DNA of 64,000 nt from an uncultured bacterium. Lineage in GTDB: Bacteria; Margulisbacteria; WOR-1; CAVSGV01. This document shows positions 2,332 through 61,630 of the stretch, piece after piece (the first letter of the stretch is position 1; each line of letters begins with the position of its first letter). The stretch covers positions 6,070 through 70,069 of the forward strand of contig OY969425.1 of NCBI GenBank assembly GCA_963699255.1. The letters are read 5' to 3'. The position numbers and the translations under genes are program-made. The notes below the pieces were generated by a model. It ran no database searches, was not told the origin of the DNA, and saw only the letters and a program-made list of their open reading frames with translations.

Positions 2332-2362
2332 TGAAATTTTCCCATGAATATTACGATAATAA
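2332..2362 (+). promoter_or_regulatory. recurrent promoter-like motif, CTGAAAT-N16-CGATAAT
   Basis: ctgaaattttcccatgaatattacgataataacg lies in the divergent leuC / 2498 intergenic region. It matches the motif found upstream of 10 other genes in this window. Confidence 0.4.
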
Positions 2363-2497
2363 CGCGGAGGAAAAAGCGGCCTACGAAAGCAAATACCTTA
2401 ATGATTGAAATTTTCGCGTGAAACTGACGATATATAAAGAGGGAAGAAGCACAAATGTTTTGAGTCACGACGTTCGGCAACGTCACAGGAAGGATAC

Positions 2498-5200
2498 ATG
2501 ATGATGAATGTTTCAAAAATGACTTTAGGGACAAGACAACCGGGTTTGAACCATCCTGTCAGTTATCGGGGGAGGATCCTTTCGCTAATTTCTCCTGAAT
2601 ATGCAATTCACCCGGATTCAGAAAAAATTGGAAAGATCATACATAATATAGCCCTCTGGCACGCAAGTATCGGAATAAGGACAAATGTTATAATCCCGTA
2701 TTCCAGTAAACTTGATAACATTAATTGGGACCAGATCACATATAACCATCCGCATAATTTCTGCTATAAGGAATATGAGGGCATTCCTGTTTTCGCGATC
2801 GGGAAAGACAAGCCTTTTTCTAATGTAATTCCGCCTAAAGAAACCGGGTATGCCGATCTGATCCATTTTGGGGACGCATTATTATATTTTATGAATCTGA
2901 ACGACTACAGCAATCATCCAACGGCCTTATTGCATTTCTTTGATTATCCCATGGGGATCGCCATGGACTACATCAGCAAACAACTTAAAGGGAACCCAAT
3001 TGCGAGTAATATGATCTTTTCACCAATGGATCCGCAAAGAAACTTTCATAAATACAACATGGGAGGAATGGGAGTCGGCATGGAAAAAGTGGATGGGCTC
3101 GAAATGGGCGCTAATGTTGCGCATAGCGTCATGTTCTGGTCGGATAAGTTTTACAAGGAGCTTCAAGGTAGTCATATGTTCTACGAATTCCTTAGGGTAA
3201 CTGGCGACAAAGCGGTTAAGTTGCCCGGTAGCTGGCAGCCTAATGTATTGGATAATATCTCGGAAAAAACATTAAGAGAGATGCAGGAAGTATATATGGG
3301 CACGTTATATAAAAAAGGGATAGATAGGTCAATACATTTTATGACTGAACCGGACACGAAAATGTTCATGGACAAGGTTTACTACTTCATTCCCGAACCC
3401 TCAGACATAGCGAAACCTTCCAGAAAAATAGTGCTCAAAGATGCTTTAAGGCATGTCGCAAGTGACCTGGACAATATAATTGTCGGTGGACTCAGAGGAG
3501 TGAAGATACTTGGCGGAGGAAGGGACAAGGATGTGTTCTACGATTACTGGGAGAATCTGGGAGGTTTAACCGCTCTTCTGGAACAGGTCATAGTGGATAA
3601 CCGGGGGAGAGCGGACGTTGATGTAAAGGGAGCAAGATACCTTCTTTTGGCAGATGCGGGAGATTTTAAAAGAGGCGGGGTAATGGCCCAGGCGCTAGGA
3701 ATTGAAGCTCTAAAAAGTTTGACGCCGGAAGGGGAGAACACACTTGGCATTAATTGTATCAAACAGGCTCCGATCTTTTTCCGTCAGCTGCCTGATCACG
3801 GGAAGGGGTGGATAGTTTTTTCCGCTTCGGACAATAAATGGCTGCCGGATGGTTCGCCAAAAACGGGGAAAAAATATTTATGGGAGTCAAAGTCCAAGAT
3901 AATCCTTACCGGGAAGCCGGCCGCCAATGTGGAGGCTGTAAAAGGCCTGGGTTGTTGGGTCGCTGATGAAGCCGGAAAGATCCAATTGTTCGCGGAGAAA
4001 GCTTCGCCGGATGTGGTTAAAAACGCCTTGGATAACCTGGGATTGGCAGAGGAAGATATAAACTTGAACCCTTTCGTTTTCGCGATCAAATACGATATTG
4101 CTGAAAAAATAGTGAACTTATACAAGGATACGCCATGCAAGAAGGACGGAAAAGCTTTTGTGACCACGTATCCCCTGGATATTTCGAGCCATTTTATTTT
4201 CCCGACAACGCTTAAAAAGGGGGAATGGCAAAGGATATACGAGATATTACAGCAGGTCAGAAAAGGCAAGGTGGCTGATGAGGTTTATGATGAAGCTACC
4301 GAGAACGGGTTAAATCTGGTCGCGATAGCGAAAGGGATGAAAAAGTTTGAAAAAGAGAGGATAGGGCAGGTATTTGATAATCTGGAGGATTGGATGATGA
4401 TATATGAGATGGCGCAGAAAATAAAACTTGATGCAAATGATATCGCGGGAGCAAGCATCGGGCCGAATTGCCAGTGGAATGATTACGGGACCCTTGAAGA
4501 AATGATCGAAAAGATGTGGATGGCGGCTTTTGATAACAAGGAGCAGGTCAGATCTGTCGCAAGAAGAAGAACAGGGTTTCCTGAGGACAACAACGATATG
4601 AGCGTTGATATGGAACAAATCAAAACGTATGTAACATTCATTGATCCAGTAACCAATGATGTCATGGATCTCGAGGACGGGGAAATTCCGGAAAAGGTGA
4701 TAATACAAGATGTTAATTTTGATCATCCGGTCCAGATCGTTGCCGATAGAGTGATATTGCATGATGTTGTACTGGGAGAGGGAGTGAAAAGGATACCGGC
4801 GAATACCATCATTTCCAGAGGGGAAATAGATGAGCTGGAAGAAGCTCCCGACCAACCCAAAAGAATATCGCATCAGCCGGCGCTAATATTCAATTGTCAT
4901 AAAAAGGGCAAGGTCATTGTTTACAGAGGCATGGCACACGCATCCCTTAGTCTTGCGTATGTTGATAATGCGGATCTTATCGCACAGGGTTTACATGCAT
5001 CAGAAACGCCGCTGGCGTTAAGCCCCATATATTTCGATCTTAAGGAGGAAATCTTGAAACAGAACAATTATCAACTGTATCCCGGCATTAATCTGCTTGA
5101 ACCGGGACTGAACATGCTGGATCAGTCGTTCATCATAGAAGATGAAAATGGCAAGCCGAAGCTTTTGGGCCTGAACTTTTTCCAGGTCAAGAGCGATTGA
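2498..5200 (+). CDS. large hypothetical protein, paralog A (900 aa)
   Basis: Long ORF. It is collinear with the next gene along its whole length, with shared motifs HNFC, HFFDYPMG, FSPMDP, ADAGDFKRGG, WESK/NAKII, FVTTYP.DIS.HFIFPTTL, YRGMAHASLSL and YPGINLLEP. No recognisable domain. Confidence 0.7.
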   Translation: MMMNVSKMTLGTRQPGLNHPVSYRGRILSLISPEYAIHPDSEKIGKIIHNIALWHASIGIRTNVIIPYSSKLDNINWDQITYNHPHNFCYKEYEGIPVFAIGKDKPFSNVIPPKETGYADLIHFGDALLYFMNLNDYSNHPTALLHFFDYPMGIAMDYISKQLKGNPIASNMIFSPMDPQRNFHKYNMGGMGVGMEKVDGLEMGANVAHSVMFWSDKFYKELQGSHMFYEFLRVTGDKAVKLPGSWQPNVLDNISEKTLREMQEVYMGTLYKKGIDRSIHFMTEPDTKMFMDKVYYFIPEPSDIAKPSRKIVLKDALRHVASDLDNIIVGGLRGVKILGGGRDKDVFYDYWENLGGLTALLEQVIVDNRGRADVDVKGARYLLLADAGDFKRGGVMAQALGIEALKSLTPEGENTLGINCIKQAPIFFRQLPDHGKGWIVFSASDNKWLPDGSPKTGKKYLWESKSKIILTGKPAANVEAVKGLGCWVADEAGKIQLFAEKASPDVVKNALDNLGLAEEDINLNPFVFAIKYDIAEKIVNLYKDTPCKKDGKAFVTTYPLDISSHFIFPTTLKKGEWQRIYEILQQVRKGKVADEVYDEATENGLNLVAIAKGMKKFEKERIGQVFDNLEDWMMIYEMAQKIKLDANDIAGASIGPNCQWNDYGTLEEMIEKMWMAAFDNKEQVRSVARRRTGFPEDNNDMSVDMEQIKTYVTFIDPVTNDVMDLEDGEIPEKVIIQDVNFDHPVQIVADRVILHDVVLGEGVKRIPANTIISRGEIDELEEAPDQPKRISHQPALIFNCHKKGKVIVYRGMAHASLSLAYVDNADLIAQGLHASETPLALSPIYFDLKEEILKQNNYQLYPGINLLEPGLNMLDQSFIIEDENGKPKLLGLNFFQVKSD

Positions 5201-5265
5201 TGCTGTTTAAAGGAAATGCGGAATTTTAAGATCCGGAGTTTGTCAAGTTTTTAGGAGGACTTATC

Positions 5266-7962
5266 ATGGACAGGCTAACAAGGACATCAGGAACAATGAG
5301 CCATCCTATCAGTTATCAGGGAAGGACCGTCTGGCTCGTTTCTCCCGAGCACATTATCCATCCGGGATGCGGGAAAATGGGGAAGATCGTACATGAGATA
5401 GCTCTGTCGAACACAAAAGCCGGAACAAATACCAATATAATAATTCCATATTCGGAGAAACTGGCTGATGTTAAATGGGACGTAAGTACGCGTAATTATA
5501 CTCATAATTTTTGCTTTAGGAAGGTTGATAATATTAGCATTTTCGCGGTCGGACGCGACCAGCCCTGGTCCGAGGTGGTGCCGGCTCAAGATAAATACTA
5601 CGAGTATGTACAATTTGCGGACGCGCTGAATTATTTTATTCATCTGCACGCTTTTACGCAAGATCCCGCCGCGATCATGCATTTCTTTGATTATCCCATG
5701 GGTTTTGCTATGAGCAATCTTAAGAGCACTCTAAGATATAATGCGAACAATTCTGATCTGATGAACAATATAATATTTTCGCCAATGGATCCGCTTAATT
5801 TTAACAAACGATATAATACAGGCGACCTTTATAACATAGACGGACTTGAATCGGGCGCTAACGCGGCGCATAAAGTGATGTTCTGGTCAGAGAAATTCTA
5901 CGATGATATCAAACGAAGCAATAGGTTCCCGGAGTTTTTAAGCGCGGCCAGCGGCAAAGAGGATATTATGCCCGGCGGCTGGCAGCCCAGAATGACGGAA
6001 ACGATCCCTCAGGTAACGATACGGGGGATGCGGGCGGGGTACATGGACACATTGTATAAAAGCGGGCTTGATCGCTCGTTCCATTTTATGGCAAGACCAG
6101 GCGTAAAAATGGACAAAGTTTTCTATTTCATTCCTGAACCATCCGATACAGGGAAACCTTCCAGGAAATCTGTGATCAGAAAGTCGTTAAGACGCGTCGA
6201 GAATGAAATGGATAGTATAGTAAAAAATGGCATAGACGGAATTAAGATGCTTGGCGGAGGAAGGGACAATGTGTTCTACGATTACTGGGGGAACCTGGGG
6301 GGATTGGTCGCTTTTCTTGAGCAAATGATGATTGAGAACACGACCAAAACGGAAGATGAAATAAAAAATGCCAGATATCTTTTCATGGCTGATGCCGGGG
6401 ATTTTAAGAGGGGCGGCGGAATTGCCCAGGCAAAAGGAGTGGAAGCTCTAAAAAGCATGACGCCGGAAGGGGATCGCACGCTCGGAATTAACTGCATTTT
6501 GCAGGCCCCCGTCTTTTTCCGGCAGCTGCCGGATGACGGAAAAGGATGGATAGTATACACGGCTTCGGACAATAAATGGATCCCCGACGGCACGCCAAGA
6601 ACGGGCAATAATTATTTGTGGGAATCAAACGCTAAAATTATCATCAGCGGGCGGCCGGCCGCAAATGTGGAAGCGGTAAGAGGACTGGGTTGTTGGATCA
6701 CCGATAAATTCGGCCAGGTCATATTTTTTGCCGAGAAAGCATCGCCGGAGGTGATCAGACACACCTTAAATAAGTTAGGCCTGAAGGAAGAAGATCTGTG
6801 CCTGAACACGTTCGTGTGGGCCATGAAATACGATCTTGCCAAAAAGATAGTGGATCTATATAAGAATAAAAAATGCAAGAAGATCATGAAGGGCAAACAA
6901 GAAGCAAAATGTTTTGTGACCACGTATCCTATGGACATTTCAACTCATTTTATCTTCCCGACAACTCTCACCCGGGCAGAATGGGAAAAAACATACGAAA
7001 TATTGCAGTATGTTAGAGCGAAAAAGGATACCTCCAAATTCAGCAATGAATTTACCGGACGCGGGCTAAGCCTGGTTGAGGTGGCGAAACAAATGAAAGG
7101 ATTTGAAAAAGAGGGGCCGGGCACTGATCAGGTCTTTAATGATCTGGATGATTGGATGACCATATATGATATGGCGAGCATTATTAACGAGGATGCAAAC
7201 GGCATAGATGGAGCGAATATCGGGAAGAATTGCCTGTGGAACGATTTCGGAGACCTTAAGAGTATGGTTAATGAAATGTATTTTGAAAATTTTTCAGACA
7301 ATGAATGGGCCAGAAAAGCCGAAAGAACGAGATCGGGATACCCTCTGGATAAGAACACTCAGAATGTTGACATGAATGAGATCAGGGACTATGTGAAATT
7401 CATAGACCCGGAATCCGGCAAGCCTATGCAGCTTGCCGAGGGGGAGATACCTGAAAAGGTGATATTAAATAATGTGAGCTTTGATCATCCTGTTGAAATT
7501 GTCGCTGACAGGGTAATATTGGATGATGTAAAGCTTGGGAAAGGGGTCACAAAAATACCGGCAAATACTATCATTGCCAAAGGAGAAATAGAGGATCTGG
7601 AAGAAGCTCCAGATCAGTCCGAAACACTTTCGAAGATGCCGGCATTGATATTCAATTGCCATAAAAAAGGCAAAGTACTTGTTTATAGGGGCATGGCACA
7701 TGCGTCTCTTAGCCTTGAATATGTCGACCAAAAAGATCTCAACGAGCAGGGTTTATCACCCTCTGACACGCCACTGACATTAACTCCCATCCTTTTCAAT
7801 TTAAAAGCACCCATTAATGAGCAAGACGACTATATACTGTACCCGGGAATTAATCTGCTTGAACCAGAATTTAGCATGTTAGAGCAGTCGTTCATCATAG
7901 AAGATGAAAATGGCAAGCCGAAGCTATTGGGCCTGACCTTTTTCCAGGTTAAGGGCGACTGA
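5266..7962 (+). CDS. large hypothetical protein, paralog B (898 aa)
   Basis: Tandem paralog of 2498..5200. A GGAGG RBS precedes the ATG. The last ~40 nt of coding DNA are almost identical to paralog A. Confidence 0.7.
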   Translation: MDRLTRTSGTMSHPISYQGRTVWLVSPEHIIHPGCGKMGKIVHEIALSNTKAGTNTNIIIPYSEKLADVKWDVSTRNYTHNFCFRKVDNISIFAVGRDQPWSEVVPAQDKYYEYVQFADALNYFIHLHAFTQDPAAIMHFFDYPMGFAMSNLKSTLRYNANNSDLMNNIIFSPMDPLNFNKRYNTGDLYNIDGLESGANAAHKVMFWSEKFYDDIKRSNRFPEFLSAASGKEDIMPGGWQPRMTETIPQVTIRGMRAGYMDTLYKSGLDRSFHFMARPGVKMDKVFYFIPEPSDTGKPSRKSVIRKSLRRVENEMDSIVKNGIDGIKMLGGGRDNVFYDYWGNLGGLVAFLEQMMIENTTKTEDEIKNARYLFMADAGDFKRGGGIAQAKGVEALKSMTPEGDRTLGINCILQAPVFFRQLPDDGKGWIVYTASDNKWIPDGTPRTGNNYLWESNAKIIISGRPAANVEAVRGLGCWITDKFGQVIFFAEKASPEVIRHTLNKLGLKEEDLCLNTFVWAMKYDLAKKIVDLYKNKKCKKIMKGKQEAKCFVTTYPMDISTHFIFPTTLTRAEWEKTYEILQYVRAKKDTSKFSNEFTGRGLSLVEVAKQMKGFEKEGPGTDQVFNDLDDWMTIYDMASIINEDANGIDGANIGKNCLWNDFGDLKSMVNEMYFENFSDNEWARKAERTRSGYPLDKNTQNVDMNEIRDYVKFIDPESGKPMQLAEGEIPEKVILNNVSFDHPVEIVADRVILDDVKLGKGVTKIPANTIIAKGEIEDLEEAPDQSETLSKMPALIFNCHKKGKVLVYRGMAHASLSLEYVDQKDLNEQGLSPSDTPLTLTPILFNLKAPINEQDDYILYPGINLLEPEFSMLEQSFIIEDENGKPKLLGLTFFQVKGD

Positions 7963-8037
7963 TGTTTTATATTCAATGTTTTCAAAGCCAAGAGAATAGT
8001 TTTACGGGTATTTTGAATATTAACGAGATAACAAGTT

Positions 8038-11000
8038 ATGGTAGAACGCACTAGGGACATAAGCCATCTGCCTGTAGCGCGGTTCAATTCGCGTTCATGC
8101 GGGATCACGTCAAAAATACCCTCAATTAAAGCCGGCCGTGATGTCGTATCGTCGACTAAAAGAATATTGATCATGTTCAAGCCGGATTGTCTGGCGTACG
8201 GAATGGTCCCGGAGACGCTCCAGCTTTTAAAGAAAGGGCTTGACCGCGAAAAGATAGATGCCCGTTTTGCAGGTCTGGTCCTCCTTAATTTAACGCCTCA
8301 GCTGACGGACAGGATATATGCGGAACATGTTGGAAAGGATTGGTACGAAGGACTATTCAAACCATTCATGACCGCAAAGCACCCGAACGAAAAAGCTGTT
8401 CGTGCCCCGATCATCGCGGCAATGCTGGAAGTAAGAAATGACGCCAGCCGGGATGTTGTCAGCGTGATAAGGAAGAACGTCATCGGCCCCACCGATGTAG
8501 AAGAGTACGAAAATAAAGATGAAATAAAGGACACATTAAGATACAAACTGATACTGGAAAAAGGATTGTTAACATGGCCGTTCCCGGAGGATCCCAAAGG
8601 CCCGAATTACAACAGGATACATTGTTCTGCAAATGAAAAAATCGCGGGAGATGAACTTTACCCGGTTTTTGGCATAAAAGGCATTTTGTCCAAACTTTAT
8701 GAACCGTCCGCGGTAAAGGATGTTCTGTCAGGCTGGAGCCAGCAGGGTTATGCCGATGTCCCCGGCGTGATCAGGATACCGATTCATGAGTATCTTGGGG
8801 CTGATCCGGTGATCTTTTCCAGAAAGATCATCAGGGCCTTCAGTGACAATGGATGCGTATATAAGGACTTTGATGAGATCAAGGCTGAACAATTGATAAG
8901 GTCATTGAATGACATGCGGGAGATGATCCAGGGCCAGGAGTTTTTTTTTAACAAGGTAACCTCTTCGATCGACCCCACAGATCCCATAAATCCTTTAAAA
9001 CCAAGAGTTGTAGCAATATTTGGCGCCCCCGGAAGCGGAAAAACCACCATTTCAGACATATTAAAGAATAAAGGCGTCGTTTCCATTCTGCCTTTGACCG
9101 TGAATGAAGAAAGAGAAAAAAGCGGAGCGACGGAATATGAGCTCAGATCAAAGACCGAAATATTGCGGATGATCCGGGAGAATGAATTCGTCGGATGGGA
9201 AATCCTTGCCGGCAATTATTATGGAATATCAAAACGGACCGCGGAAATGATCCTGAGATCTTCCGGCAAAACTTTCGCTCTGCTGGCCGGGCCAACAATT
9301 GTTTATCCATTAAGGGAAGCGCTCAAGGGGAAAGCGGACTTTTATCAGGTGATGTTCAAAGTGCCCCCGAATGACCTTGCTTCAAGGATCACAAAACGCG
9401 CGACCGTCCGGGACAGGGAAAGGGGCATCGCTTTATCCCTTGAGACTCAAAAATGGATGGAGGAAAGTTTCGGGAATTTCGACCTCATAACGGAAAACCC
9501 GAACAGCGAAAGTGAAACGGCGGCGGCTCAAAAGCTGATCGATTTTCTGGCCAAGCCCCAAAACGTAGAATTCGACCGCAAAAAAGAAGCTTCAACTCTG
9601 GCGGCTACTTATCCATATAATGCCGTGGAAATGTTCAAGGACCAGAGACAGAGTTTCAGTAATAAGGATATTGTAACCCTTGAAAAACAAGTCATGTCCC
9701 TTGTGGGGACTACAATTGAAGCTATGTACCGCGCGGTCAGGAGCTCGCTTCCCGCGGAGACGGACCTGGGAGTCGAATTCAATGAATTTTTGTCCGGCTT
9801 GATATTGCATACCGCAAAAGTACTGGTCGCCGGTATTCAGCTTAGATCGTTCCAATATGAAGATATTACCGCGAGCCCGATCAAGTTCGGCAGGATAGGA
9901 CTGTGCAGCTCAAAAGAAAGGGCGGATAAACTTTATAAAAAGCTCAAGGATATCCAGAACAGGATGCCTCTTGAAGAAGAAATGCTTTTTGATCTTGTTC
10001 ATGATATCGGGAAAATGGAGAACATCATACAACATCCCGAAAAAGGTTATGAAATAGCGAAAAGGCTGAAAATGTTCGAAGGGTGGGGGGTTGAAGGGAT
10101 AGACACCGATGTCGATCTTATTGCCATAAAATGCTCGCATCTTATCGGCTCGTATATGTTGCCGGATAATTCGCTTATTGCCGTGGCAGATGAACTTTCC
10201 CATAAGGATGTGAAGAGCGTTCTTGCCAGGAAGGACGGGAGCGTGGACATGGAACGCATGAAAAACTTCCTGGAAAAGATATGTTTTTTCCCGTCCAAGG
10301 ACGCATCCGGATACAAGGATGGATGGTTGTTAGTTCTGTTCTCTGAAGGGTATTTTGCCTTTGGAGAATGGCTTTATTCCGTATTCAGCAGGAATTCGGA
10401 TAATTACGATAACGCGATAGCTGAAATTAAAAAGAGCAGCGCCGGGTCTAATATGGACAGGATAGCAAAGTGCGTTGCCATGGAGGATGCGGATGCCGAT
10501 GTCAACGGGCGAACATTCGAATATTACAGGGACAATATCGTAATGCCGAACGTCCGGGCCTGCGTTGATGAATGGGTATTCACGCAAAAAGACTGGGATC
10601 TGGTCGTGGGGAACCTCCATCATATAAGTAAACTCCGTTATTCAACGAACCTGATATGCGATTCCCTGCAGTGGATAGGGGCAAAAGGCGAAAAGATCGA
10701 GGACCTCAATAATTACAGGAATATGTTCAAGCTTTTCGTGATCATGGCTAAATCGCTCATCGCATTCTCAAAGGATCCATCGCGGCCCGGCGATTTTGAG
10801 TTCAGGTTCACATATGACGACGGCAAAGAGATAATGGGCCCGAAGAATTGGGGGCCGGCAATGGACTTTTGTAATGACCAGCTGGATATTTCAACCGGCG
10901 ATATTGAAAAAGTCGGCAACAGCATATCAATCGTTCCCAAAGAAAAAAGCAAGCTGCCGAACGTGGAAATTACCGAAGAAATCGTGGATGGATGCAGGTT

Positions 11001-11052
11001 GATCTCCTTCAAGCTTAAAGGTTATTCAGGGCAAAATCCCGCTTCAAAATAG
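8038..11052 (+). CDS. multidomain protein with NDK-like, guanylate-kinase-like and HD-phosphohydrolase domains plus a C-terminal region of unknown function (1004 aa)
   Basis: Residues ~40-180 read ILIMFKPDC...FAGLVLLNLTPQLTDRIYAEHVGKDWYEGLFKPFMT...APIIAAMLEVR, an NDK-like fold in which I cannot find the HGSD catalytic His. Residues ~330-490 have the P-loop AIFGAPGSGKTT, then TVNEEREKSG, GNYYGISKRT and LAGPTIV, matching GMP kinase. Residues ~590-700 have H...LVHDIGK, an HD motif. The start is uncertain; ATG at 8174 (MFKPD) is an alternative. Confidence 0.7.
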   Translation: MVERTRDISHLPVARFNSRSCGITSKIPSIKAGRDVVSSTKRILIMFKPDCLAYGMVPETLQLLKKGLDREKIDARFAGLVLLNLTPQLTDRIYAEHVGKDWYEGLFKPFMTAKHPNEKAVRAPIIAAMLEVRNDASRDVVSVIRKNVIGPTDVEEYENKDEIKDTLRYKLILEKGLLTWPFPEDPKGPNYNRIHCSANEKIAGDELYPVFGIKGILSKLYEPSAVKDVLSGWSQQGYADVPGVIRIPIHEYLGADPVIFSRKIIRAFSDNGCVYKDFDEIKAEQLIRSLNDMREMIQGQEFFFNKVTSSIDPTDPINPLKPRVVAIFGAPGSGKTTISDILKNKGVVSILPLTVNEEREKSGATEYELRSKTEILRMIRENEFVGWEILAGNYYGISKRTAEMILRSSGKTFALLAGPTIVYPLREALKGKADFYQVMFKVPPNDLASRITKRATVRDRERGIALSLETQKWMEESFGNFDLITENPNSESETAAAQKLIDFLAKPQNVEFDRKKEASTLAATYPYNAVEMFKDQRQSFSNKDIVTLEKQVMSLVGTTIEAMYRAVRSSLPAETDLGVEFNEFLSGLILHTAKVLVAGIQLRSFQYEDITASPIKFGRIGLCSSKERADKLYKKLKDIQNRMPLEEEMLFDLVHDIGKMENIIQHPEKGYEIAKRLKMFEGWGVEGIDTDVDLIAIKCSHLIGSYMLPDNSLIAVADELSHKDVKSVLARKDGSVDMERMKNFLEKICFFPSKDASGYKDGWLLVLFSEGYFAFGEWLYSVFSRNSDNYDNAIAEIKKSSAGSNMDRIAKCVAMEDADADVNGRTFEYYRDNIVMPNVRACVDEWVFTQKDWDLVVGNLHHISKLRYSTNLICDSLQWIGAKGEKIEDLNNYRNMFKLFVIMAKSLIAFSKDPSRPGDFEFRFTYDDGKEIMGPKNWGPAMDFCNDQLDISTGDIEKVGNSISIVPKEKSKLPNVEITEEIVDGCRLISFKLKGYSGQNPASK

Positions 11053-11061: not shown

Positions 11062-11090
11062 TGAAATTTCCAGGAGTTTCATACGATAAA
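11062..11090 (+). promoter_or_regulatory. recurrent promoter-like motif
   Basis: ttgaaatttccaggagtttcatacgataaat, 12 nt upstream of the 11103 start. Confidence 0.4.
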
Positions 11091-11102
11091 TAAAGGAAGA
11101 TT

Positions 11103-12536
11103 ATGAGTGAAATTCGCTTTAACCCGAGAATGCCGCGCGTAGAGAACGCTGTTTTGCAGCCGAAAAAGCTGTCAAACGGAACATCCGCGCTTTATTTCAG
11201 CAGATCGCTCCCGTATAGCGATCCCAATAACGCGAGAGAACTGATAGATAACAAGCTTTTTTATCTGTCGGCGCAGAGGTTTGATGTCTTCGCGTGTTTC
11301 TCGGGGCACATGTCCAGAAAGCCCGCCATTTTACAGGAAAGCGTGAACCGATTTGCATCCCGTTTTAGAGAAAGAAACAAGGTGGTCATAAAGGAACTTG
11401 GAGCGGGATCCGGGGACAGCATGGCAATCGTGCTTGGCGATGTAAAAAAGAGATATTCTCCGCTGTACAAGAAATTGTCCGCGTATGCTTCCGACGGGTA
11501 TGAACCGGTTTGTGAAGCAATGAAAAGGTCAAAGCAGCTTCGACAATTCATTTCAGAAAATAAATTGGATATTTTACGGGAGGACCTGTTGGAAGATCTC
11601 CACGGCCAGAAATTAGCCGATTATGTTCGAGTGAGTTATTCTCTCTCGGACCTTCCGGAAGATATCGTGAAGAAAGAAAACGGAAGGTTTTACGCGGCTG
11701 ATGTAAGAGGATATATTACCGGCAAAGAGGGCTTTAGAACGCAAGACAATGAAAATATCCCTGTCAAATATATTGCCGGTCTGTTAAGCGAAGGAAAGCT
11801 GCAGGAGATCATAGACCTGGGACTGGACATACGCGACATAAAACCCAGAGTGGGATTTGATGTCAAGTATGCGCCTATGGATTTCGCCGTCATGACCGAC
11901 GGCGGTCTGGTCAGGAATATACTGGAGCAGATCACGGCTGGTATGGGAGATACCAAGCTCAGGACGGGATTGAACGCGGCAAAAGCGGTCGAAAAAATAT
12001 TGAACAATCATCTCAGGCCGGATGTTGGATCATATATCGAGGCGTTCGATGTGTGGACATCAGAGATCATGCCGCATGCGCACATCCCTTATACGGCCCT
12101 TGATCTTACTTCGGCATACAGCGTGAACCTGCCTTTCATCAAGGCGTATTTTGAAGCCAAAAAGACGCCGATAGATGTGGGATTCGAGGACTGGAAGAGA
12201 TACATAAATCTGACAGAGCCGTATATCGATCTGTCGCATTTTTCAAGATGGCTAAAGGGCAGCGGAGCGGAGATCGATTCGTTCTTCGGGCGGCATATTC
12301 CGGCAAGAAGCGTGAGCATGGTCGTTGACTTCCTTAAAAGGACGCAACATGTTGCTGATATGGTTTTATATTCCGAAAAGCAGGCTCATCCATTTATCCT
12401 GGTCCTTAATAACGCGGGATTCACTGAGAAGGAAAAAGAAATGTTATTCATCAGCGGAAAATTCCCGGAGACCGTTAATACAAAAACAAAAGGTTATTTC
12501 GGGCTTTATCAGGTCGTTACCATCAAAAACATATGA
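11103..12536 (+). CDS. hypothetical protein, possible Rossmann-fold SAM-methyltransferase-like (477 aa)
   Basis: AAGGAAG RBS. VIKELGAGSGDSMAIVLG resembles MTase motif I, with an acidic residue after the next strand (AYASDGYEP). Assignment is weak. Confidence 0.5.
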   Translation: MSEIRFNPRMPRVENAVLQPKKLSNGTSALYFSRSLPYSDPNNARELIDNKLFYLSAQRFDVFACFSGHMSRKPAILQESVNRFASRFRERNKVVIKELGAGSGDSMAIVLGDVKKRYSPLYKKLSAYASDGYEPVCEAMKRSKQLRQFISENKLDILREDLLEDLHGQKLADYVRVSYSLSDLPEDIVKKENGRFYAADVRGYITGKEGFRTQDNENIPVKYIAGLLSEGKLQEIIDLGLDIRDIKPRVGFDVKYAPMDFAVMTDGGLVRNILEQITAGMGDTKLRTGLNAAKAVEKILNNHLRPDVGSYIEAFDVWTSEIMPHAHIPYTALDLTSAYSVNLPFIKAYFEAKKTPIDVGFEDWKRYINLTEPYIDLSHFSRWLKGSGAEIDSFFGRHIPARSVSMVVDFLKRTQHVADMVLYSEKQAHPFILVLNNAGFTEKEKEMLFISGKFPETVNTKTKGYFGLYQVVTIKNI

Positions 12537-12537: not shown

Positions 12538-12572
12538 CTGAAATTTCCCTCCATTTTTAACGATATATATAC
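12538..12572 (+). promoter_or_regulatory. recurrent promoter-like motif
   Basis: ctgaaatttccctccatttttaacgatatatatacac, followed by the RBS cagggagaaaatgcctatg. Confidence 0.4.
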
Positions 12573-12583
12573 ACAGGGAGAAA

Positions 12584-13327
12584 ATGCCTATGGCCGATAT
12601 TAGAGGGATTTCATTCGGGACAGCGTTAAAAGGGACGGCCCATTATCTAAAAATGAGGTCAATGGAAAAGCTGCATCCATTCAATGTCCCTGCCGGCGGG
12701 AAATTCTCAAAGCCCGGTCTCATAATGGACGAAGATGCTTACGTAATGGCCATGCATGAGCCGATAGCCGTATATTACGCGCAAAAGCTCGCGGTAAAGC
12801 ATCTGGTCGAGATCTGCTCAGGAGCCGGTTCAATGACAGTTCAATTCGGGCGGTTCAGCGACCGCGTATCCACAATAGAGATGGACCTTTACCGTTCTCA
12901 AAGGTGTGTCCCGCACAATACAAAAGTTTACGGCGTAAATGAAAAGGTGACCTCAATATGGGGGAACGCCATGCATGAAGATCTTTTAAAATCTTTAGCT
13001 CCGGCTGGTGCGGTTTGGGCCGATCCGGACTGGCTTTATGACGTGCCGCCGGCGAATTTCCCGATCGCCATGACGCAGCCGCCGATCCCGGAGGTATTTG
13101 AAAAGGTCAACCGCTTATTGACCCCTAACATGGCGTTCAGGATGGTGAGGACAACAAGGATCAATGACGTGCTGAAGCTTGGCCCATGCAGGATAGAATA
13201 TGTTTATTGGGACAATAAGCTTAAATTCCTGGTAAGCCTCTTTGGTAATCTTGCTTCTGAACAGGGTATCTTTGAAATTAACTTTTCCTCAGATAAAGGA
13301 TTCCTCTCAAGCCAGCGCATTAAGTGA
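12584..13327 (+). CDS. putative SAM-dependent methyltransferase (247 aa)
   Basis: Motif I-like VEICSGAGSMTVQFG. A downstream WADPDW / DVPPANF segment is reminiscent of the (D/N)PP(Y/W) motif of amino-MTases. Own promoter motif and RBS. Confidence 0.5.
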   Translation: MPMADIRGISFGTALKGTAHYLKMRSMEKLHPFNVPAGGKFSKPGLIMDEDAYVMAMHEPIAVYYAQKLAVKHLVEICSGAGSMTVQFGRFSDRVSTIEMDLYRSQRCVPHNTKVYGVNEKVTSIWGNAMHEDLLKSLAPAGAVWADPDWLYDVPPANFPIAMTQPPIPEVFEKVNRLLTPNMAFRMVRTTRINDVLKLGPCRIEYVYWDNKLKFLVSLFGNLASEQGIFEINFSSDKGFLSSQRIK

Positions 13328-13359
13328 AATTCCGCCCCATTTTTGACGATATATATATA
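13324..13359 (+). promoter_or_regulatory. recurrent promoter-like motif
   Basis: gtgaaattccgccccatttttgacgatatatatata, followed by the RBS caggggagaacaaaatg. Confidence 0.4.
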
Positions 13360-13373
13360 CAGGGGAGAACAAA

Positions 13374-13583
13374 ATGAAGACCGGAAAAGCAATAAATTTC
13401 TATTTCAATGAACCCCGCATTTACAGGGCGAGACCGGATGTCGCGAGGCTGAAAACACTGCATAAAGAAGGGCTTAACATACGGTATACAACAGCTGAGG
13501 ACAGGGACATGAAGATACCCGACAAATTTTTTCCCTGCACCGCGTATCGCGGGAAACCTCATTACCCAGGGATATTCATATAA
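13374..13583 (+). CDS. small hypothetical protein (69 aa)
   Basis: Strong RBS (AGGGGAG) and the promoter motif lie directly upstream. The ORF ends 4 nt before the PurA-like gene. Confidence 0.4.
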   Translation: MKTGKAINFYFNEPRIYRARPDVARLKTLHKEGLNIRYTTAEDRDMKIPDKFFPCTAYRGKPHYPGIFI

Positions 13584-13587
13584 AGCG

Positions 13588-15162
13588 TTGGATTACGCGG
13601 TCAGCGTCATTAAGAACCAATTTGACAATAAAACACTGAAGGCCGGAGACAGCATTGACCTGATGAAATACCTTAAATTGCGCGGCAATTCTATGGTCCT
13701 TTGCGGAGCGCAATGGGGCGATGAAGGAAAGGGAAGAATGGCTTACCTCATGGCTTCCTTATTGGGAGCCAAAGCCGTGGTGAGATTCAACGGCGGGCCG
13801 AACGCGGGGAAAGTGGTGGAGGCTGAAAATGGAAGGGTCTTTGAATTGTGCATGCTGCCTGCCGGCGCTCTCAACCCGGACGTGGAAATATACATGGCTC
13901 AGGGAACGTACATCAACCTCAAGTATCTTCTAAAAGAGATTGACGATCTAGAGGCAAACAAAATATCCACCAGGAGGAGAGTGTTCATTGATGACAATTG
14001 CAGTTTGGTCCTTCCGTACTACGAAGAATTAAGCCGGGCAAAAAATATGGAGCGTTCAAAGGCCATATCTTTTAATGCAGGAATGGGAGAAGGAAGCACC
14101 GGCATGGGAATGGGCGGGGCGGTGGAAAGTAATGATATGCGCCGGGGCATTAAAGTCCATGATCTGTTCGGCGATCCCAAGCAATTACTCTCCAAGATAA
14201 CTAAAGATTTGATTTTGCAAGAATATAAGATCAGGGGATTGCTATTGATAAATAATGATAGCTGGCGTTTTCCTGAAAATTACGCAAAGAACCTTTGTGA
14301 TGACCTGTTGAAAATGGCGGGAGAGATCAAGCATATGAGGGCGAATGTAGGCCGAAAGATAGAAAGAACGATTCTGGCCGGCGGGAACATTGTTTTTGAA
14401 GGCGTCCAGGCGGCGCTTCTGGATAATGCCTGGGGCACATATCCAATTAATACAACATCCACCAAAACAACACCAAATAGCATTTATGATGGTTTGAACC
14501 TTGATTCAAAATATATGCTGACAAAAGTGGGTATCGTCAAAAGTTATACTGCCGTAAGAGGGAAGACCCCGCTTCCTACCGAATTAACCGGGGCAGAAGG
14601 TGATAAATTAAGTGAAGCGGGAAATGAATATGAGGTCAGTTACAAGATAGATCCAGAAGGCACCTTAATAACGGTTTATAATCCCGACGGGAAAACGATA
14701 GCTTATGATAAAAGCAAGCGTATCGCTGTGGGGTGGCAGGATGCCCTGGTTCTTGCAGAGTGCGCAAAGACAGGATTCACGCACTTCGCGCTCACAAAAC
14801 TGGATGCTCTGGACGGCTTCGATGAAATAAAGATCGCGACAGCGTACAAATACGAAGGCGATCAGGAATTAAACCCTAGTATTTATGAGGTCGAAGAACA
14901 CGACGAGGCAACTTTCATCCGATCATATGTCAAAGACCCGAAAGTACTTAAACACTGCACGCCGATCTATGAGACACTCCCCGGGTGGGCGTCCGAACTT
15001 AAAAAAAGAGGGCTTGCATCAATTTCGGAGATAAAAAAGTTTGAAGATCTTCCTGCCGCGGCGCAGAACTATGTGAAACGAATAGAAGAGATTCTGGGGC
15101 GTCCGATCGTATTTGTCTCTGTCGGCCCCAAAAAGGACCAATATATTGAAAGAAAATACTAG
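13588..15162 (+). CDS. adenylosuccinate-synthetase (PurA)-family ligase, divergent, with a remodelled active site and a ~100-aa insertion
   Basis: The P-loop CGAQWGDEGKG, VVRFNGGPNAGKV (GHT replaced by GKV), LLDNAWGTYPINTTST, TKLDALDG and SVGPKKD all align to PurA. The Asp-binding GATTGRRRR loop is replaced by VSYKIDPEGTLITVYNPDGKTIAYDKSKRIAVGW. The annotated start is TTG; in-frame ATGs at 13663 and 13693 are alternatives. Confidence 0.8.
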   Translation: MDYAVSVIKNQFDNKTLKAGDSIDLMKYLKLRGNSMVLCGAQWGDEGKGRMAYLMASLLGAKAVVRFNGGPNAGKVVEAENGRVFELCMLPAGALNPDVEIYMAQGTYINLKYLLKEIDDLEANKISTRRRVFIDDNCSLVLPYYEELSRAKNMERSKAISFNAGMGEGSTGMGMGGAVESNDMRRGIKVHDLFGDPKQLLSKITKDLILQEYKIRGLLLINNDSWRFPENYAKNLCDDLLKMAGEIKHMRANVGRKIERTILAGGNIVFEGVQAALLDNAWGTYPINTTSTKTTPNSIYDGLNLDSKYMLTKVGIVKSYTAVRGKTPLPTELTGAEGDKLSEAGNEYEVSYKIDPEGTLITVYNPDGKTIAYDKSKRIAVGWQDALVLAECAKTGFTHFALTKLDALDGFDEIKIATAYKYEGDQELNPSIYEVEEHDEATFIRSYVKDPKVLKHCTPIYETLPGWASELKKRGLASISEIKKFEDLPAAAQNYVKRIEEILGRPIVFVSVGPKKDQYIERKY

Positions 15163-15230: not shown

Positions 15231-15262
15231 TGAAATTTTTATTTATTTATTGCGATAAAGTA
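15231..15262 (+). promoter_or_regulatory. recurrent promoter-like motif
   Basis: gtgaaatttttatttatttattgcgataaagtaatt. Confidence 0.35.
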
Positions 15263-18200: not shown

Positions 18201-18314
18201 AGGGAAATAAAAGAGGAGTACGAAGTTAACGGTAGGACCGTGGCGTTCTTGAATAACAGGGCATATGTGAAATACAACGGTGATGTTGAGAAGGTGATCT
18301 GGTGGTATCAGTAA
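15288..18314 (+). CDS. large hypothetical protein (~1008 aa)
   Basis: Long ORF. ATG at 15288 has AAGGGAAA 10 nt upstream; the ORF track's start at 15264 is TTG. No recognisable domain. Confidence 0.65.
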   Translation: MPFFERIKFNRTDIRKQNVEPLKIGKQAPKLHLPDQEIRVRIIPEIHGITGNMENMNNIGRTIKISQDDATLFKTHPWLEQIPEDAILSGETAKIFKNKLSKVIDAMDGLMPSIGVTGTKLKSIRVATAELKKIFKRSEGKTVRDTCKALIGVYTYLGVRAVGTVAVVGIPQISTGEKVIDGIAAAALFLGESVVRLRTTIGYQHSILEGLGRGPKYYDISADEKVHASGIEFNPNDLENPFKIFTDAPECMSVLYINEEPGVLERSIFGHFFIENKRQMMVVNSGGYKFEEFQHIVDTVKNWIEARKSEVLSAKARSISSRDAELSAMELLKLLVNIRTECKRLSDAYYETAVQDFGNMIAGSGAALDKELAQQILLHTRKWDEKISALYDHIENYEGGNVNADQLRRHISSHYDYLEQKFTFDIVINFRNFKTFDVGTYKAMCGAIETRLAGQNIDMNAPVESASFNAIVDRIIEESEDRDRPVSYLLSTIQMNNGNVRYDQTSASYKYNCIIGGKTNKAVLDELIMENLSRMAFEGAYKAGARAEEYDHLGRKYVKAVNSYGTRFLVTVDEWLGGMSDVILGPELRRASIDLGNNVAGQLQLDAARAIDKETAQRAIEAVASRTLNNGGNTTIRDRQKIRIMERIAKVFMEDGRTTGDFLKEIAAVALYDVAASPTYDPTYETAIEWAAYPEKAYILSYDKDYVPQSIDPNSGEYNDMARLSVPMHEKWIYEDNRTNIALIQHPQYQKHFKKEGPLKDGVRMTTGNGKYLEPVANSSGSDQQAWYGEFALPKPLERTLSRYINRRTGVQFLEKVANKLYKDKTVRKSLVANITRDMRENVAYRMEKGIDQKLDYLTGREIIERVKYYSRDIMIATGIGPGRGKFNSFFSCGTNELEYAVGMMLGFNSPYTYMVDGITMLGQTTVRYNPDMGKMEIHNYEPRFSNDLTWISESNDQNHRQMHELNESDMREIKEEYEVNGRTVAFLNNRAYVKYNGDVEKVIWWYQ

Positions 18315-23942: not shown

Positions 23943-23977
23943 GTGAAATTTACGACGAAACCTGCCGATATATATAT
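23943..23977 (+). promoter_or_regulatory. recurrent promoter-like motif
   Basis: gtgaaatttacgacgaaacctgccgatatatatat is GAAA-N15-GCCGATAT, which also matches the sigma-28/SigD-type -10 element. Confidence 0.4.
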
Positions 23978-30561: not shown

Positions 30562-30600
30562 CTGAAATTCTTCATAAGATCCGACGATAATATAGTATAG
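30562..30600 (+). promoter_or_regulatory. recurrent promoter-like motif
   Basis: ctgaaattcttcataagatccgacgataatatagtata. Confidence 0.4.
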
Positions 30601-43685: not shown

Positions 43686-43710
43686 TTTTATAAACGGGAG
43701 GAAGATTTTT

Positions 43711-46423: not shown

Positions 46424-46456
46424 GTGAAATTTATCCAGCGATCGGTCGATAATAAT
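46424..46456 (+). promoter_or_regulatory. recurrent promoter-like motif, distal copy
   Basis: gtgaaatttatccagcgatcggtcgataataat. Confidence 0.35.
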
Positions 46457-46502: not shown

Positions 46503-46538
46503 AGTGAAATTTAAAGTGGATTTTAACGATATATATAT
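46503..46538 (+). promoter_or_regulatory. recurrent promoter-like motif, proximal copy
   Basis: gtgaaatttaaagtggattttaacgatatatatata, 57 nt upstream of the 46595 start. Confidence 0.4.
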
Positions 46539-55714: not shown

Positions 55715-56562
55715 TAGAAGAATTTTTAAGCCACCTTAAGTATGAAAGGGGATACAGCGGGAACACCGTATCTGCTTATAAGAGGGACCTTGCTCATTTT
55801 GACAGGCATTTGAGGCAGCTGAATATCAGCTCTGTAAGCAGCATCACAAGGCCCGCGATAAGTTCGTTCGTCACGGCCCTTGTGGGGATGGGGCTTGAAG
55901 CTTCAAGCATAGAAAGGCATGTTGCGGCGGTAAAATCATTTTTTGCTTATCTGGTAAGGGAAGGCAAGGTCAAGATAAACCCCACTTCTGATATAAGGCT
56001 TCCGAGAAAGAGCAAGAAACTGCCGAAAGCCCTTTCAATGAACGAGGCGAAGAGCCTGGTGGAATGCCCCAGGTCAAAAAAGGACAGGGCGATAATGGAG
56101 CTTCTTTACGCGACGGGGATAAGGGCGACGGAGCTGGTCGGCCTCACGCTGAATGATGTCAATCTGGACGTCGGCTTTATCAAATGTTTCGGCAAGGGCG
56201 GGAAAGAACGGATCGTGCCGATGGGAGGATCCGCGATCTCCGCCATTAAAGAATACATCAAGTCGGACCGTCCAAAGTCCTCAAGCGATATTTTGTTCCT
56301 GGACAGGATGGGAAAGCAGCTTACCCGCCAGGGACTCTGGTTCATCGTCAAGAAATACGTTGAATTATCGGGGGTGAGGGCGAGCGCGTCTCCCCACACC
56401 CTGAGGCATTCTTTCGCCACGCACCTTTTGGAGGGCGGCGCGGACCTGCGCTGCGTCCAGGAGATGCTGGGCCACAGCGATATTTCCACCACCCAGGTGT
56501 ATACTAGCGTAAGCAGGGAGCGGCTGAAAAAGATATATCACTCCGCTCATCCTAGGGCATAA
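55702..56562 (+). CDS. XerC/XerD-family tyrosine recombinase
   Basis: N-terminal SAM-like domain (LKYERGYSGNTVSAYKRDLAHF). C-terminal catalytic region HTLRHSFATHLLEGGADLRCVQEMLGHSDISTTQVYT has the R..H..R..Y residues. Confidence 0.85.
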   Translation: MEKIIEEFLSHLKYERGYSGNTVSAYKRDLAHFDRHLRQLNISSVSSITRPAISSFVTALVGMGLEASSIERHVAAVKSFFAYLVREGKVKINPTSDIRLPRKSKKLPKALSMNEAKSLVECPRSKKDRAIMELLYATGIRATELVGLTLNDVNLDVGFIKCFGKGGKERIVPMGGSAISAIKEYIKSDRPKSSSDILFLDRMGKQLTRQGLWFIVKKYVELSGVRASASPHTLRHSFATHLLEGGADLRCVQEMLGHSDISTTQVYTSVSRERLKKIYHSAHPRA

Positions 56563-56776
56563 CGGGTAACCATGGAACCTGAGACTAAAAGTCTCGGTTC
56601 CAAATAGAGTATGAAAATTAACCGCGAATTTTATTCGCGGGATGTTAGTTAGCTCATCCTAGGGCATAACGGGTAACCATGGAACCTGAGACTAAAAGTC
56701 TCGGTTCCAAATAGAGTATGAAAATTAACCGCGAATTTTATTCGCGGGATTTTAGTTAACTCATCCGAGGGCATAA
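56545..56776 (+). repeat. tandem direct repeat, 2 x 107 bp plus a 15-bp partial third unit; each unit has two hairpins and includes the last ~18 nt of the recombinase gene
   Basis: The unit is (gct)catcctagggcataacgggtaaccatGGAACCtGAGACtaaaaGTCTCGGTTCCaaatagagtatgaaaattaaCCGCGAATtttATTCGCGGgat(g/t)ttagtta(g/a)ct, with units at 56548-56654 and 56655-56761, then catccgagggcataa. Confidence 0.85.
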
Positions 56777-58562: not shown

Positions 58563-58801
58563 TTTGAGAAGGATTTAAAAGGTCCTTATTTAAGGAGTTG
58601 TCGGATGATGCTCGTTGCAATGGCATTTACTCTAATTCATAGGCACAGTCTGGGTAAAGAGAGTTTGAGAAGGCGAAGGAATGGAATATTAGGATTCCGA
58701 ACGAAAAAGAGTATAATGAGTTGAAATATCTTATTTTGTTAGGTGTACTAATGTGATTAGCGGAAATGAATCAACTAAAAAACGACTATTGGAGGTAAAT
58801 C

Positions 58802-60433: not shown

Positions 60434-60994
60434 CTATTTCTTGATATTTATTGCCACTGACCGGCTGAACCAGATCTTAGGTTCTTCAAGAACATTAAAC
60501 CCAAGGCTTTTTATCGTTTCTATCGACTTGCTAAAGTCTTTCTTTGAAACATGGAACTTCGGCTCAACTATTAGGACTTTCCCGTCCGGCTTCAATAACG
60601 TCTTTATTTCCTTCAACAACGCCAGCTGGTCGGGGATCTCGTGAAGGACATAAAATATCAAAATAAAGTCGAACTTTTCCGTTAAGCCTAACTTGTCCTT
60701 CGGGGTTATATATAGCTCTATGTTCTTAAGGCCCGAACGCTCGATCTTTTTCTTCAGTATCTCCAGCATCCCATCCTGCAGATCAGCCGCAACCACCTTG
60801 CCGGAAGCTCCCACCATCTTCGCCATATCCATGGTGAAAAATCCCGGGCCGCAGCCAAGATCAAGCACCGTCATCCCTTCATTAATATATGGCTTTAATA
60901 TCCGCTTCGGATCATGGGCCCGCCTGCGTATCCCCATATCCAATATGCCCGAGAGTATTACCGGGCAGATTTTGTAGTTTATATCTAATTTCAT
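60434..60994 (-). CDS. class I SAM-dependent methyltransferase (UbiE/SmtA-like)
   Basis: Motif I VLDLGCGPGFFTMDMA, followed by the acidic motif VVAADL. Confidence 0.75.
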   Translation of the reverse strand: MKLDINYKICPVILSGILDMGIRRRAHDPKRILKPYINEGMTVLDLGCGPGFFTMDMAKMVGASGKVVAADLQDGMLEILKKKIERSGLKNIELYITPKDKLGLTEKFDFILIFYVLHEIPDQLALLKEIKTLLKPDGKVLIVEPKFHVSKKDFSKSIETIKSLGFNVLEEPKIWFSRSVAINIKK

Positions 60995-61181
60995 TTTTCC
61001 TTCCCGCTTTCTTTATTATATTTATCGTTCATCAGCTTGTCTATATTTCATTTGTTGAACTATTTTTCAGGTGAGAGTTAACATGGTGGAAGCTAATTTG
61101 GGCTTATCGGCAAGATCAAAACGCGTTTCTGCGCTTTAGATATACTATGGCATAGTAATAAGCCAATCAGAAACGCTTGAC

Positions 61182-61505
61182 CTTCTTTCTTTGTTACTTT
61201 CTTTGTGTCAAGACAAAGAAAGTAAGAAAGAAATGCCTTTGTGTTGTTTAGACAAAAAATGATCTTAAATGATCGAGACGAGGGGCTCTGCCCTTACGTA
61301 GAAAGTATAGTGGTTCCATTAAGATATCTCTCTCATCCCGCCCATTTTCTTTCTGCTCCTTCCTTGACTTGCCTACTCCCCCGACACAAGGTCGAGGTCG
61401 TACGGCTCAAACAGAAGGCCTAACAATGAAACCCCCTCTGTATCTCCCCCTTACTAAGGGGGAGAAGTCTTGCGCGCAAGCGTGAGACAGAGGGGGTGCA
61501 GACTT
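61182..61505. repeat. hairpin-rich ~300-bp intergenic element, copy 1, including a 22/24-bp inverted repeat at 61184-61232
   Basis: cttctttctttgttactttctttgtgtc-aa-gacaaagaaagtaagaaagaaa is a near-perfect palindrome. The core …gggctctgcccttacgtagaaagtatagtggttccattaagatatctctctcatcccgcccattttctttctgc…ggtcgaggtcgtacggctcaaacagaaggcctaacaatgaaaccccctctgtatctcccccttactaagggggagaag… is shared with 63469-63830. Confidence 0.6.
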
Positions 61506-61598
61506 ATTAAGAGGTTGACAATGGGATTTTTGGCTATTAGTATGACTGCATCGGTCTCGCAAGAGGGGTTAACCCGTTATTCTTTAAGCCATAAATAC

Positions 61599-61630
61599 TG
61601 AAATTTATCGCGTAATTTAATGATATATAT
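61599..61630 (+). promoter_or_regulatory. recurrent promoter-like motif
   Basis: ctgaaatttatcgcgtaatttaatgatatatat, 24 nt upstream of the 61655 start. RBS is agaggag. Confidence 0.4.

Follow-up and report, generated by a model that had tools for sequence, protein, structure and literature searches.

A rigid, sigma-28-like candidate promoter motif ahead of lineage-specific genes in Margulisiibacteriota

Sigma factors of the FliA family serve a developmental or late programme, and not flagella, in Streptomyces (WhiG) and in Chlamydia (the sigma-28 late genes); these regulons are small and their promoters follow the canonical consensus TAAA / GCCGATAA. Promoters of the same sigma-28 class in Bacillus subtilis read TAAA-N15-GCCGATAT, and another factor of this bacterium, the extracytoplasmic function (ECF) sigma factor sigma-W, controls envelope and surface genes. 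In Escherichia coli the sigma-28 class promoter is TAAAGTTT-N11-GCCGATAA (PMC4183435), while sigma-W recognises TGAAAC, a T-tract, N16 and CGTA, with the consensus tGAAACnTTTt (PMC5758882). In the attack phase of Bdellovibrio, 92 of 140 promoters carry TTAAG-N16-CCGATA, and hypothetical genes make up 59% of the attack-phase set (PMC3627812). Flagellar superoperons of a type in which sigma-28 is usually encoded are present in some Margulisbacteria (PMC11607428; PMC7018530). Here we describe a bipartite motif, TGAAAT-N16-CGATA, repeated in a stretch of 64,000 nucleotides (nt) from an uncultured bacterium of the WOR-1 lineage of Margulisbacteria (contig OY969425.1, positions 6,070 to 70,069), which we call the window.

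The motif is very probably the promoter of an alternative sigma factor. The fuller reading that we favour, with somewhat better than even confidence, is that of a phylum-wide promoter resembling those of sigma-28, with a shifted -35 element, which would govern a large non-flagellar regulon of mostly lineage-specific genes.

The motif in the window and across the phylum

Ten exact cores begin at 2332, 2406, 11062, 12539, 13325, 15231, 23944, 30563, 46425 and 46505, all of them on the + strand and upstream of genes, with no copy on the - strand of the whole window; about 0.1 would be expected by chance (47 copies of TGAAAT times the frequency of CGATA, which occurs 127 times). When one mismatch was tolerated, the window gave 12 matches against 2.2 ± 1.5 in shuffled sequences. 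From 5' to 3' the aligned sites consist of an A/T-rich stretch, (G/C)TGAAATTT, a spacer, first C-rich and then rich in A, in which positions 19-20 are T and G, CGATATAT, ATAG and a purine-rich Shine-Dalgarno (SD) sequence. The end of CGATA lies 14-67 nt from the start codon at eight sites, and 139 and 143 nt from it at the upstream copies of two tandem pairs.

A previous reading of this DNA, made from its letters and open reading frames (ORFs) and referred to below as the sequence-only reading, had already reported a repeated motif, always in the + orientation of the downstream gene, and had likened it to a sigma-factor recognition pattern. All ten sites that it cited are present, the orientation holds for the ten exact copies, and the bipartite build, rigid spacing, A/T-rich upstream stretch, strand specificity and closeness to the SD sequence and start codon bear out the likeness. 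Its coordinates pointed to the correct sites and were 0-2 nt off, the preceding G/C having been counted in. The spacer, given as 15-18 nt, is exactly 16 nt at every site, and the copy at 2406, tandem partner of 2332, had been overlooked.

A pattern scan with TGAAATTY-N14-CGATATATAT over one genome per species (185,579 species) matched at least 118 loci, to which the L numbers used below refer, as they do to further related loci. At least 69 of them are labelled Candidatus Margulisiibacteriota, Saganbacteria or WOR-1 (26 assemblies), and at least 36 come from 11 unlabelled metagenome-assembled genomes (MAGs), with up to eight matches each, that have regulon gene families in common with the labelled genomes. 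At least 13 are singletons in other phyla, where our own calculation gives about 35 by chance for such a pattern. Among the matches listed, the motif is therefore concentrated taxonomically in Margulisiibacteriota, and the singletons from other phyla stand at about chance level. The exact core occurs 166 times in the scan loci, 48 copies being additional to those selected by the scan, and synteny links 46.6-52.1 kb of the window to L028, a locus in a single-cell genome of Margulisiibacteriota, which places the window in this phylum. A scan of all of IMG/VR returned eight single matches on AT-rich contigs, which is chance level, and the motif is therefore not phage-associated. Contrary to the picture of a feature local to the accessory island, to which the sequence-only reading had kept, the motif is to all appearances a promoter conserved across the phylum, with roughly 25-100 sites per genome as bracketed from the strict-pattern matches per MAG and the local site density.

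The spacing of the two elements is rigid. In 875 kb of Margulisiibacteriota DNA we counted 172 sites with a spacer of 16 nt, an exact class inflated through its selection by the scan pattern, and 1, 4, 1 and 3 sites with spacers of 14, 15, 17 and 18 nt, respectively. In the same DNA, single-base variants of the -35 element were all at chance level, and among the -10 variants a few (NGATA, CGAAA) were modestly enriched, the rest being at or near chance. The unselected sets agree, since the window, L002 and L005 together have 20 exact sites versus one or two variants. CGATA is invariant by the definition of the search; the base after it is T at 81% and A at 18% of the sites.

The position of the sites relative to genes is equally marked. 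In the Margulisiibacteriota loci, an ORF of at least 100 amino acids (aa) starts within 80 nt on the same strand at 68% of the sites versus 19% of random positions, and long ORFs enclose 32% of the sites versus 88% of random positions; start codons follow CGATA at a median distance of 31 nt. TGAAAT is preceded by an A/T-rich region, with ATAG and a purine-rich SD sequence downstream, and back-to-back divergent pairs of the motif exist in L072, L079 and L120.

Conservation before orthologous genes was followed with an orphan ORF (ORFan) of 477 aa that starts at 11103 of the window and has only nine homologs among 5.8 billion proteins. Two proteins of the window, looked up by exact sequence, had no entry, the called start codons being different; the homology search recovered the identical version, of 468 aa (P0001). 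The window and the DNA of seven homologs of the ORFan make up eight lineages, which span 49-73% protein identity for this ORFan and a contig GC content of 44-61%. TGAAAT-N16-CGATA(T/A)AT precedes the gene in all eight, with TGAAAT beginning 41-48 nt before the ATG, and in the alignment of the eight upstream regions TGAAAT and ACGATA-ATA alone are invariant, the flanks having diverged. Further orthologous genes of the cluster in L002 and L005 also retain the motif. As judged from these alignments, the motif is a phylogenetic footprint and not the result of recent duplication.

Sigma class of the putative promoter

The sequence-only reading had pointed to promoters of the sigma-28/SigD type, a likeness that now holds in quantitative terms. 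We built a matrix from 25 E. coli FliA ChIP-seq sites with FAT > 4 (PMC4183435). Of 127,946 positions scored with it, the best 25 include seven of the ten window sites, whose scores (8.9-16.2) compare with 6.4-25.7 for the real E. coli sites and 4.6 for the 99.9th percentile. Column by column, the agreement with the E. coli sites comprises AAA, the T-run, the C-rich spacer positions 10-12, T19, G20, CGATA and the following A/T. When GAAA is aligned on TAAA, CGATA falls at +21, as in the E. coli ChIP-seq sites, for one spacer length only, and GAAATTT matches the sigma-28 -35 element TAAA(G)TTT at six of eight positions, its first base being G at every site. The best match of the matrix in the window is of another kind: 681-708 (+), GAAAGATT-N11-GCCGATAT, with a score of 20.9, lies antisense within leuD and may be either a chance match or an antisense promoter.

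Because the geometry and most base preferences are those of sigma-28, a FliA-family (group 3) sigma is the most likely reader of the motif, and we lean towards it with somewhat better than even confidence over an ECF sigma, which appears improbable. Several observations weigh against this assignment. The canonical TAAA-N15-GCCGATA is at chance level in the Margulisiibacteriota sample, as is the relaxed TAAA-N15-nnCGATA (14 found, 10.4 expected), and the -35 element always has G as its first base, in contrast to the T of sigma-28 promoters. The 'GC' before CGATAA is weakly kept, with G at 54% (-2) and C at 21% (-1) of the sites and A the commonest base at -1, whereas the E. coli FliA sites have G at 88% and C at 84% in these positions. 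Searches with phmmer, in which FliA, SigD, SigW, RpoE, RpoD and flagellin were compared with every ORF of the window and of the loci (about 0.9 Mb of related DNA), found no sigma gene and no flagellin, the one match being the short protein described below. Among the 138 proteins encoded downstream of the motif in Margulisiibacteriota genomes there is no flagellar or chemotaxis family, so that a flagellar role of the SigD type is not borne out, nor is there any FlgM, pilus, sigma or anti-sigma family.

One protein was considered as a regulator and set aside. It is encoded at 546-932 of L089, has 128 aa and contains sigma-70 region 4 only (Pfam E = 1.9e-12); it adjoins a motif-driven small gene, on the downstream side. 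We dropped it because it is an orphan, its homology search returning itself alone, and because it is not conserved beside the same small gene in L066 or L097.

A further point against the FliA family is that ECF promoters of the sigma-W kind have the same spacing and a similar -35 element, TGAAAC plus a T-tract (PMC5758882). A reader of this group (group 4), although unlikely in our judgement, would explain the identical arrangement of a 6-mer, N16 and CG, the agreement of the -35 element at five of six bases followed by T's as in tGAAACnTTTt (PMC5758882), and the very stringent recognition, which is typical of ECF sigmas; moreover, several envelope proteins belong to the regulon (SLH/PorV/FadL-like outer-membrane proteins, YkuD and signal peptidase II). 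What speaks against it is the sequence of both elements: the hallmark AAC is unused and AAT invariant, TGAAAC-N16-CGATA having no copy in 875 kb, and the -10 element, the 8-nt CGATATAT, coincides with the sigma-28 core and not with CGTA or CGTC, with CGTTA occurring once in 875 kb, at chance level, and CGT-type -10 elements absent. In addition, the agreement with FliA sites takes in the spacer and the TG that precedes CGATA. Autoregulation is usual for ECF sigmas, but none of the 166 sites precedes a protein with Sigma70 r2/r4 or a sigma/anti-sigma gene, a test of low power. The alternative offered by the sequence-only reading, that the motif is the primary (housekeeping) sigma consensus of the lineage with -35 GTGAAA and -10 TATATA, is scarcely credible. 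The motif is indeed frequent, with 10 copies in 64 kb, one gene behind it encodes an outer-membrane/SLH protein that is probably abundant, and one site can be read as GTGAAA-N18-GATAAT in a sigma-70 scan. Yet genes without the motif have canonical promoters: TTGACA-N18-TATGGT at csoR and the extended -10 TGaTATAAT at pabB in the window, and TTGACT-N17-TATAAT or TGnTATAAT at tRNA genes in the Margulisiibacteriota loci. The housekeeping promoters of the lineage are therefore canonical, and we rejected the primary-sigma reading. The 138 downstream genes contain no ribosomal or other core housekeeping family, sigma-70 recognition fits neither the invariant C and G in CGATA nor a gap of 20 nt before TATATA, and there is no continuum of degenerate copies.

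It is also very unlikely that the motif is no promoter at all, being instead a transcription-factor site beside an unseen promoter or an RNA-level processing or translation element in read-through transcripts. The closeness of the sites to the SD sequence and start codon, the ability of the C-rich spacer to pair with the SD sequence at 12539 and 13325, and the intergenic gaps of 46-50 nt, which could belong within operons, are all compatible with such an element. RNA folding of ten sites, however, gave no significant or shared fold (z-scores -1.45 to +1.64), the two boxes are neither symmetric nor complementary, unlike the site of a dimeric factor, and the motif occurs where no co-directional upstream transcript is possible, as in the leuC divergent region (2332/2406) and in the pairs of L072, L079 and L120; an operator or RNA element is therefore unlikely. 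The -35/-10 spacing and the UP-like A/T tract form a promoter geometry, and E. coli FliA promoters have the same C-rich spacer. The pairing itself (CCCTCC/GGGAG) is seen at 12545-12590 and 13331-13370 of the window; it could silence the translation of read-through transcripts or be just a promoter feature, as the spacers of E. coli FliA sites are also C-rich. A junction of an integron or gene cassettes was rejected, as there is no inverted repeat, the orthologous positions are conserved, and the sites are dispersed beside housekeeping genes. Rfam gave no match in the window, L066, L089 or L097.

Returning to the favoured FliA-family reading, we propose that RNA polymerase with an alternative, non-housekeeping sigma would read the motif as a promoter, sigma region 4 binding the -35 element GAAATTT and regions 2 and 3 the -10 element (t)G-n-CGATAT, while the A/T-rich upstream stretch would behave like an UP element. 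Transcription would start about 7-9 nt past CGATAT, at the conserved ATAG, and the resulting mRNA leaders would be very short, beginning almost at the SD sequence. The sigma would be of the FliA family (group 3), with its -35 specificity moved from TAAA to GAAA.

Transcription units of the window and the wider regulon

In the accessory block of the window, every gap of at least 46 nt that heads tightly packed genes carries the motif, and genes that abut or overlap carry none between them; transcription units therefore begin where the motif stands, as the sequence-only reading had held for this block. It would thus act as the predicted promoter at the head of every transcription unit of the 47-kb block (2.5-49 kb). 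The gaps are narrow, some predicted promoters being squeezed into 46-50 nt between genes, and at 13325 in the window, at 8119 and 12868 in L002 and at 12232 in L005 the preceding gene ends on the TGA with which the -35 element TGAAAT opens.

The leftmost pair lies in the divergent intergenic region common to leuC and a 900-aa ORFan that starts at 2498. Its upstream copy, TGAAAT-N16-CGATAATA, occupies 2332..2361 (+), and the downstream copy, TGAAAT-N16-CGATATAT (2406..2435, +; FliA matrix score 13.3), lies 65 nt before the ATG at 2498 and heads the unit 2498-11052, composed of two ORFans of about 900 aa and a fusion of nucleoside diphosphate kinase (NDK) and guanylate kinase. The first gene of the orthologous locus L005 is also preceded by a tandem pair, at 4007/4098. 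The predicted promoter of the 477-aa ORFan (11103-12536) is at 11062..11091 (+), with 14 nt from CGATA to the ATG, and that of the methyltransferase gene 12584-13327 is at 12539..12568 (+) and is kept in L005 at 11446. The next, at 13325..13354 (+), precedes a PurA-like gene (13374-15162) and is conserved in L002 (12868), L005 (12232), L135 (6009) and L136 (4259). This gene, of the adenylosuccinate synthetase family, is frameshifted in the window into a 69-aa frame from the ATG at 13374 and a 524-aa frame from 13588; in L002, L005 and L136 the ortholog is one unbroken ORF of 581-608 aa, and the split gene would be either a pseudogene or an assembly error.

Four more sites complete the accessory block from 15 kb onwards, together with the second copy of a pair. 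A CGATAAAG variant at 15231..15260 (+) is the predicted promoter of the unit 15288-23892, which encodes proteins of 1008, 489, 316 and 1061 aa, with a GH26 domain in the one of 1061 aa. The site at 23944..23973 (+), with GCCGATAT, is the most sigma-28-like of all (FliA matrix score 16.2, rank 2 of 127,946) and would drive the unit 24038-30518, which encodes ORFans of 1459 and 695 aa. That at 30563..30592 (+) is the predicted promoter of the unit 30653-46110, with a 601-aa ORFan, small ORFs, a 2904-aa Fn3 protein and an 814-aa TIG protein. The second tandem pair precedes the gene of an SLH/outer-membrane protein (46595-49183), its upstream copy being at 46425..46454 (+) and its downstream copy at 46505..46534 (+), 63 nt before the ATG at 46595; homologous outer-membrane protein genes with the motif are found in L015, L028, L056 and L070.

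Outside the block, the sequence-only reading had included a site at 61599. The copy is indeed there (61599..61628, +), before a 62-aa DUF5678 gene (61655-61843), but it reads TGAAAT-N16-TGATATAT, with TGATA in place of CGATA, and is probably a weak member; NGATA variants of this type are modestly over chance in Margulisiibacteriota DNA. A 'looser copy' that had been placed at 58713 (58720..58752, +; TTGAAAT...TACTAAT) has no CGATA and is not a member. The match at 61020..61050 (-), before a methyltransferase gene (60994..60434), has a 17-nt spacer, a spacing at chance level in Margulisiibacteriota DNA, and overlaps a sigma-70 match, TAGACA-N17-TATAAT; for both reasons this copy was treated as doubtful.

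The genes at 2498-23892 belong to a conserved, lineage-restricted cluster that is also present in L002, L005 and L134-L137. It contains the two ORFans of about 900 aa, the fusion of NDK and guanylate kinase (about 1000 aa), the 477-aa ORFan, which is often duplicated, the methyltransferase, the PurA-like enzyme with an N-terminal extension of about 170 aa, giant ORFans and the GH26 protein. Sequence searches of the PDB with three proteins of the block gave matches only to guanylate kinase and NDK, for the 1004-aa protein. From its gene content, the cluster may make or modify a nucleotide.

Across genomes the regulon is made up largely of uncharacterised families. Of 170 downstream proteins, 128 fall into singleton or small clusters, and about three quarters of the 138 Margulisiibacteriota proteins, as estimated from family counts, have no Pfam domain. 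The domains present among the 138 include Ser/Thr kinases (7), TPR, LRR, FGE-sulfatase (3) and GH16 (2), as well as PorV/FadL-like outer-membrane proteins, YkuD, GGDEF, FHA and RRM. A conserved motif-driven protein of 61-65 aa with no Pfam domain recurs in L038 (6361), L073 (3003), L076 (7599), L079 (5244) and L094 (6742), and is, on the evidence of these loci, a core member of the predicted regulon. In L038, L073 and L094 it is followed by an ORF of 75-80 aa and adjoins an NAD kinase-like N-terminus, recognised by eye; the loci L076 and L079 end before these neighbours. Another motif-driven family, of 94-110 aa with the start MKLNDKIRDRK, is followed at its 3' side in three MAGs by a conserved non-coding stretch of about 100 nt with no Rfam match (L066 ~1300-1450 on the - strand, L089 ~480-620 and L097 ~3310-3450).

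Some features of the window stand apart from the motif. The first part of the accessory block (2000-34000) has a GC content of 0.44-0.49, lower than the 0.50-0.54 of the rest of the window (34000-58000). A 107-nt tandem duplication, 99% identical, lies at 56545-56758 between a xerD-like gene and the gene of an M50 peptidase, with a hairpin, CCGCGAATTTTATTCGCGG, in each copy. A repeat of about 240-290 nt (82-88% identical, 61253-61490 and 63512-63804) and one of 30 nt (62219 and 63846) flank the pabB-like gene (62208-63329, - strand), and may represent a mobile or repeated intergenic element.

Significance and comparison with known systems

The literature searched contained no account of this promoter and none of Margulisbacteria sigma factors. 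With the motif, gene regulation can be approached from sequence alone in an uncultured phylum, the sister of Cyanobacteria: a single pattern of 27 nt predicts transcription units and co-regulated 'dark matter' genes in any Margulisiibacteriota genome. It suggests that a sigma-28-type factor has been recruited to a global programme other than flagella, and it would supply strong native promoters with a defined consensus, whose pairing with a sigma can be tested in vitro without cultivation. More tentatively, and with rather less than even confidence, we suggest a phylum-specific master sigma, either a repurposed FliA or a new lineage, that would act through the rigid TGAAATTT-N14-CGATATAT on tens to about 100 lineage-specific genes per genome. 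If this is true, its targets would be giant surface proteins, Ser/Thr kinases, LRR, TPR and RRM proteins and the conserved cluster of nucleotide enzymes, and a phylum so far read for its metabolism alone would have a two-state lifestyle or a developmental programme, comparable with those of Bdellovibrio or Chlamydia.

With the WhiG and Chlamydia sigma-28 systems the likeness is that of a non-flagellar programme, and the difference lies in their canonical consensus and small regulons. With sigma-W promoters the motif shares TGAAAx followed by T's, the 16 nt to the CG of the -10 element and the stringent recognition (PMC5758882), but it has AAT where ECF promoters have AAC and CGATAT where they have CGTA or CGTC, and no autoregulated sigma/anti-sigma operon was seen among the 166 sites, a comparison of low power. 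From the sigma-28 promoters of FliA, SigD and WhiG it departs in the first base of the -35 element (G, not T), in position 5 (T, not G), in the base directly before CGATA (mostly A here, C in sigma-28), in being far more rigid than the E. coli FliA sites, and in a sampled regulon without flagellar or chemotaxis genes. It shares with them the core -10 element CGATA(A/T), the 15-nt stretch separating xAAA from the 8-mer in which the -10 element ends, the T-run after the -35 element, the C-rich spacer positions 10-12 and the T-G before the -10 element, and the scores of the window sites fall among those of real E. coli FliA sites (PMC4183435). Bdellovibrio bacteriovorus, where FliA acts as a global regulator, is the nearest precedent in function. 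It has a different -35 element, flagellar and chemotaxis genes in the regulon and measured FliA expression, whereas the regulon sampled here is known from sequence and showed no flagellar member; in both, a sigma-28-type motif presides over a large regulon of mostly 'hypothetical' or cell-surface genes (PMC3627812).

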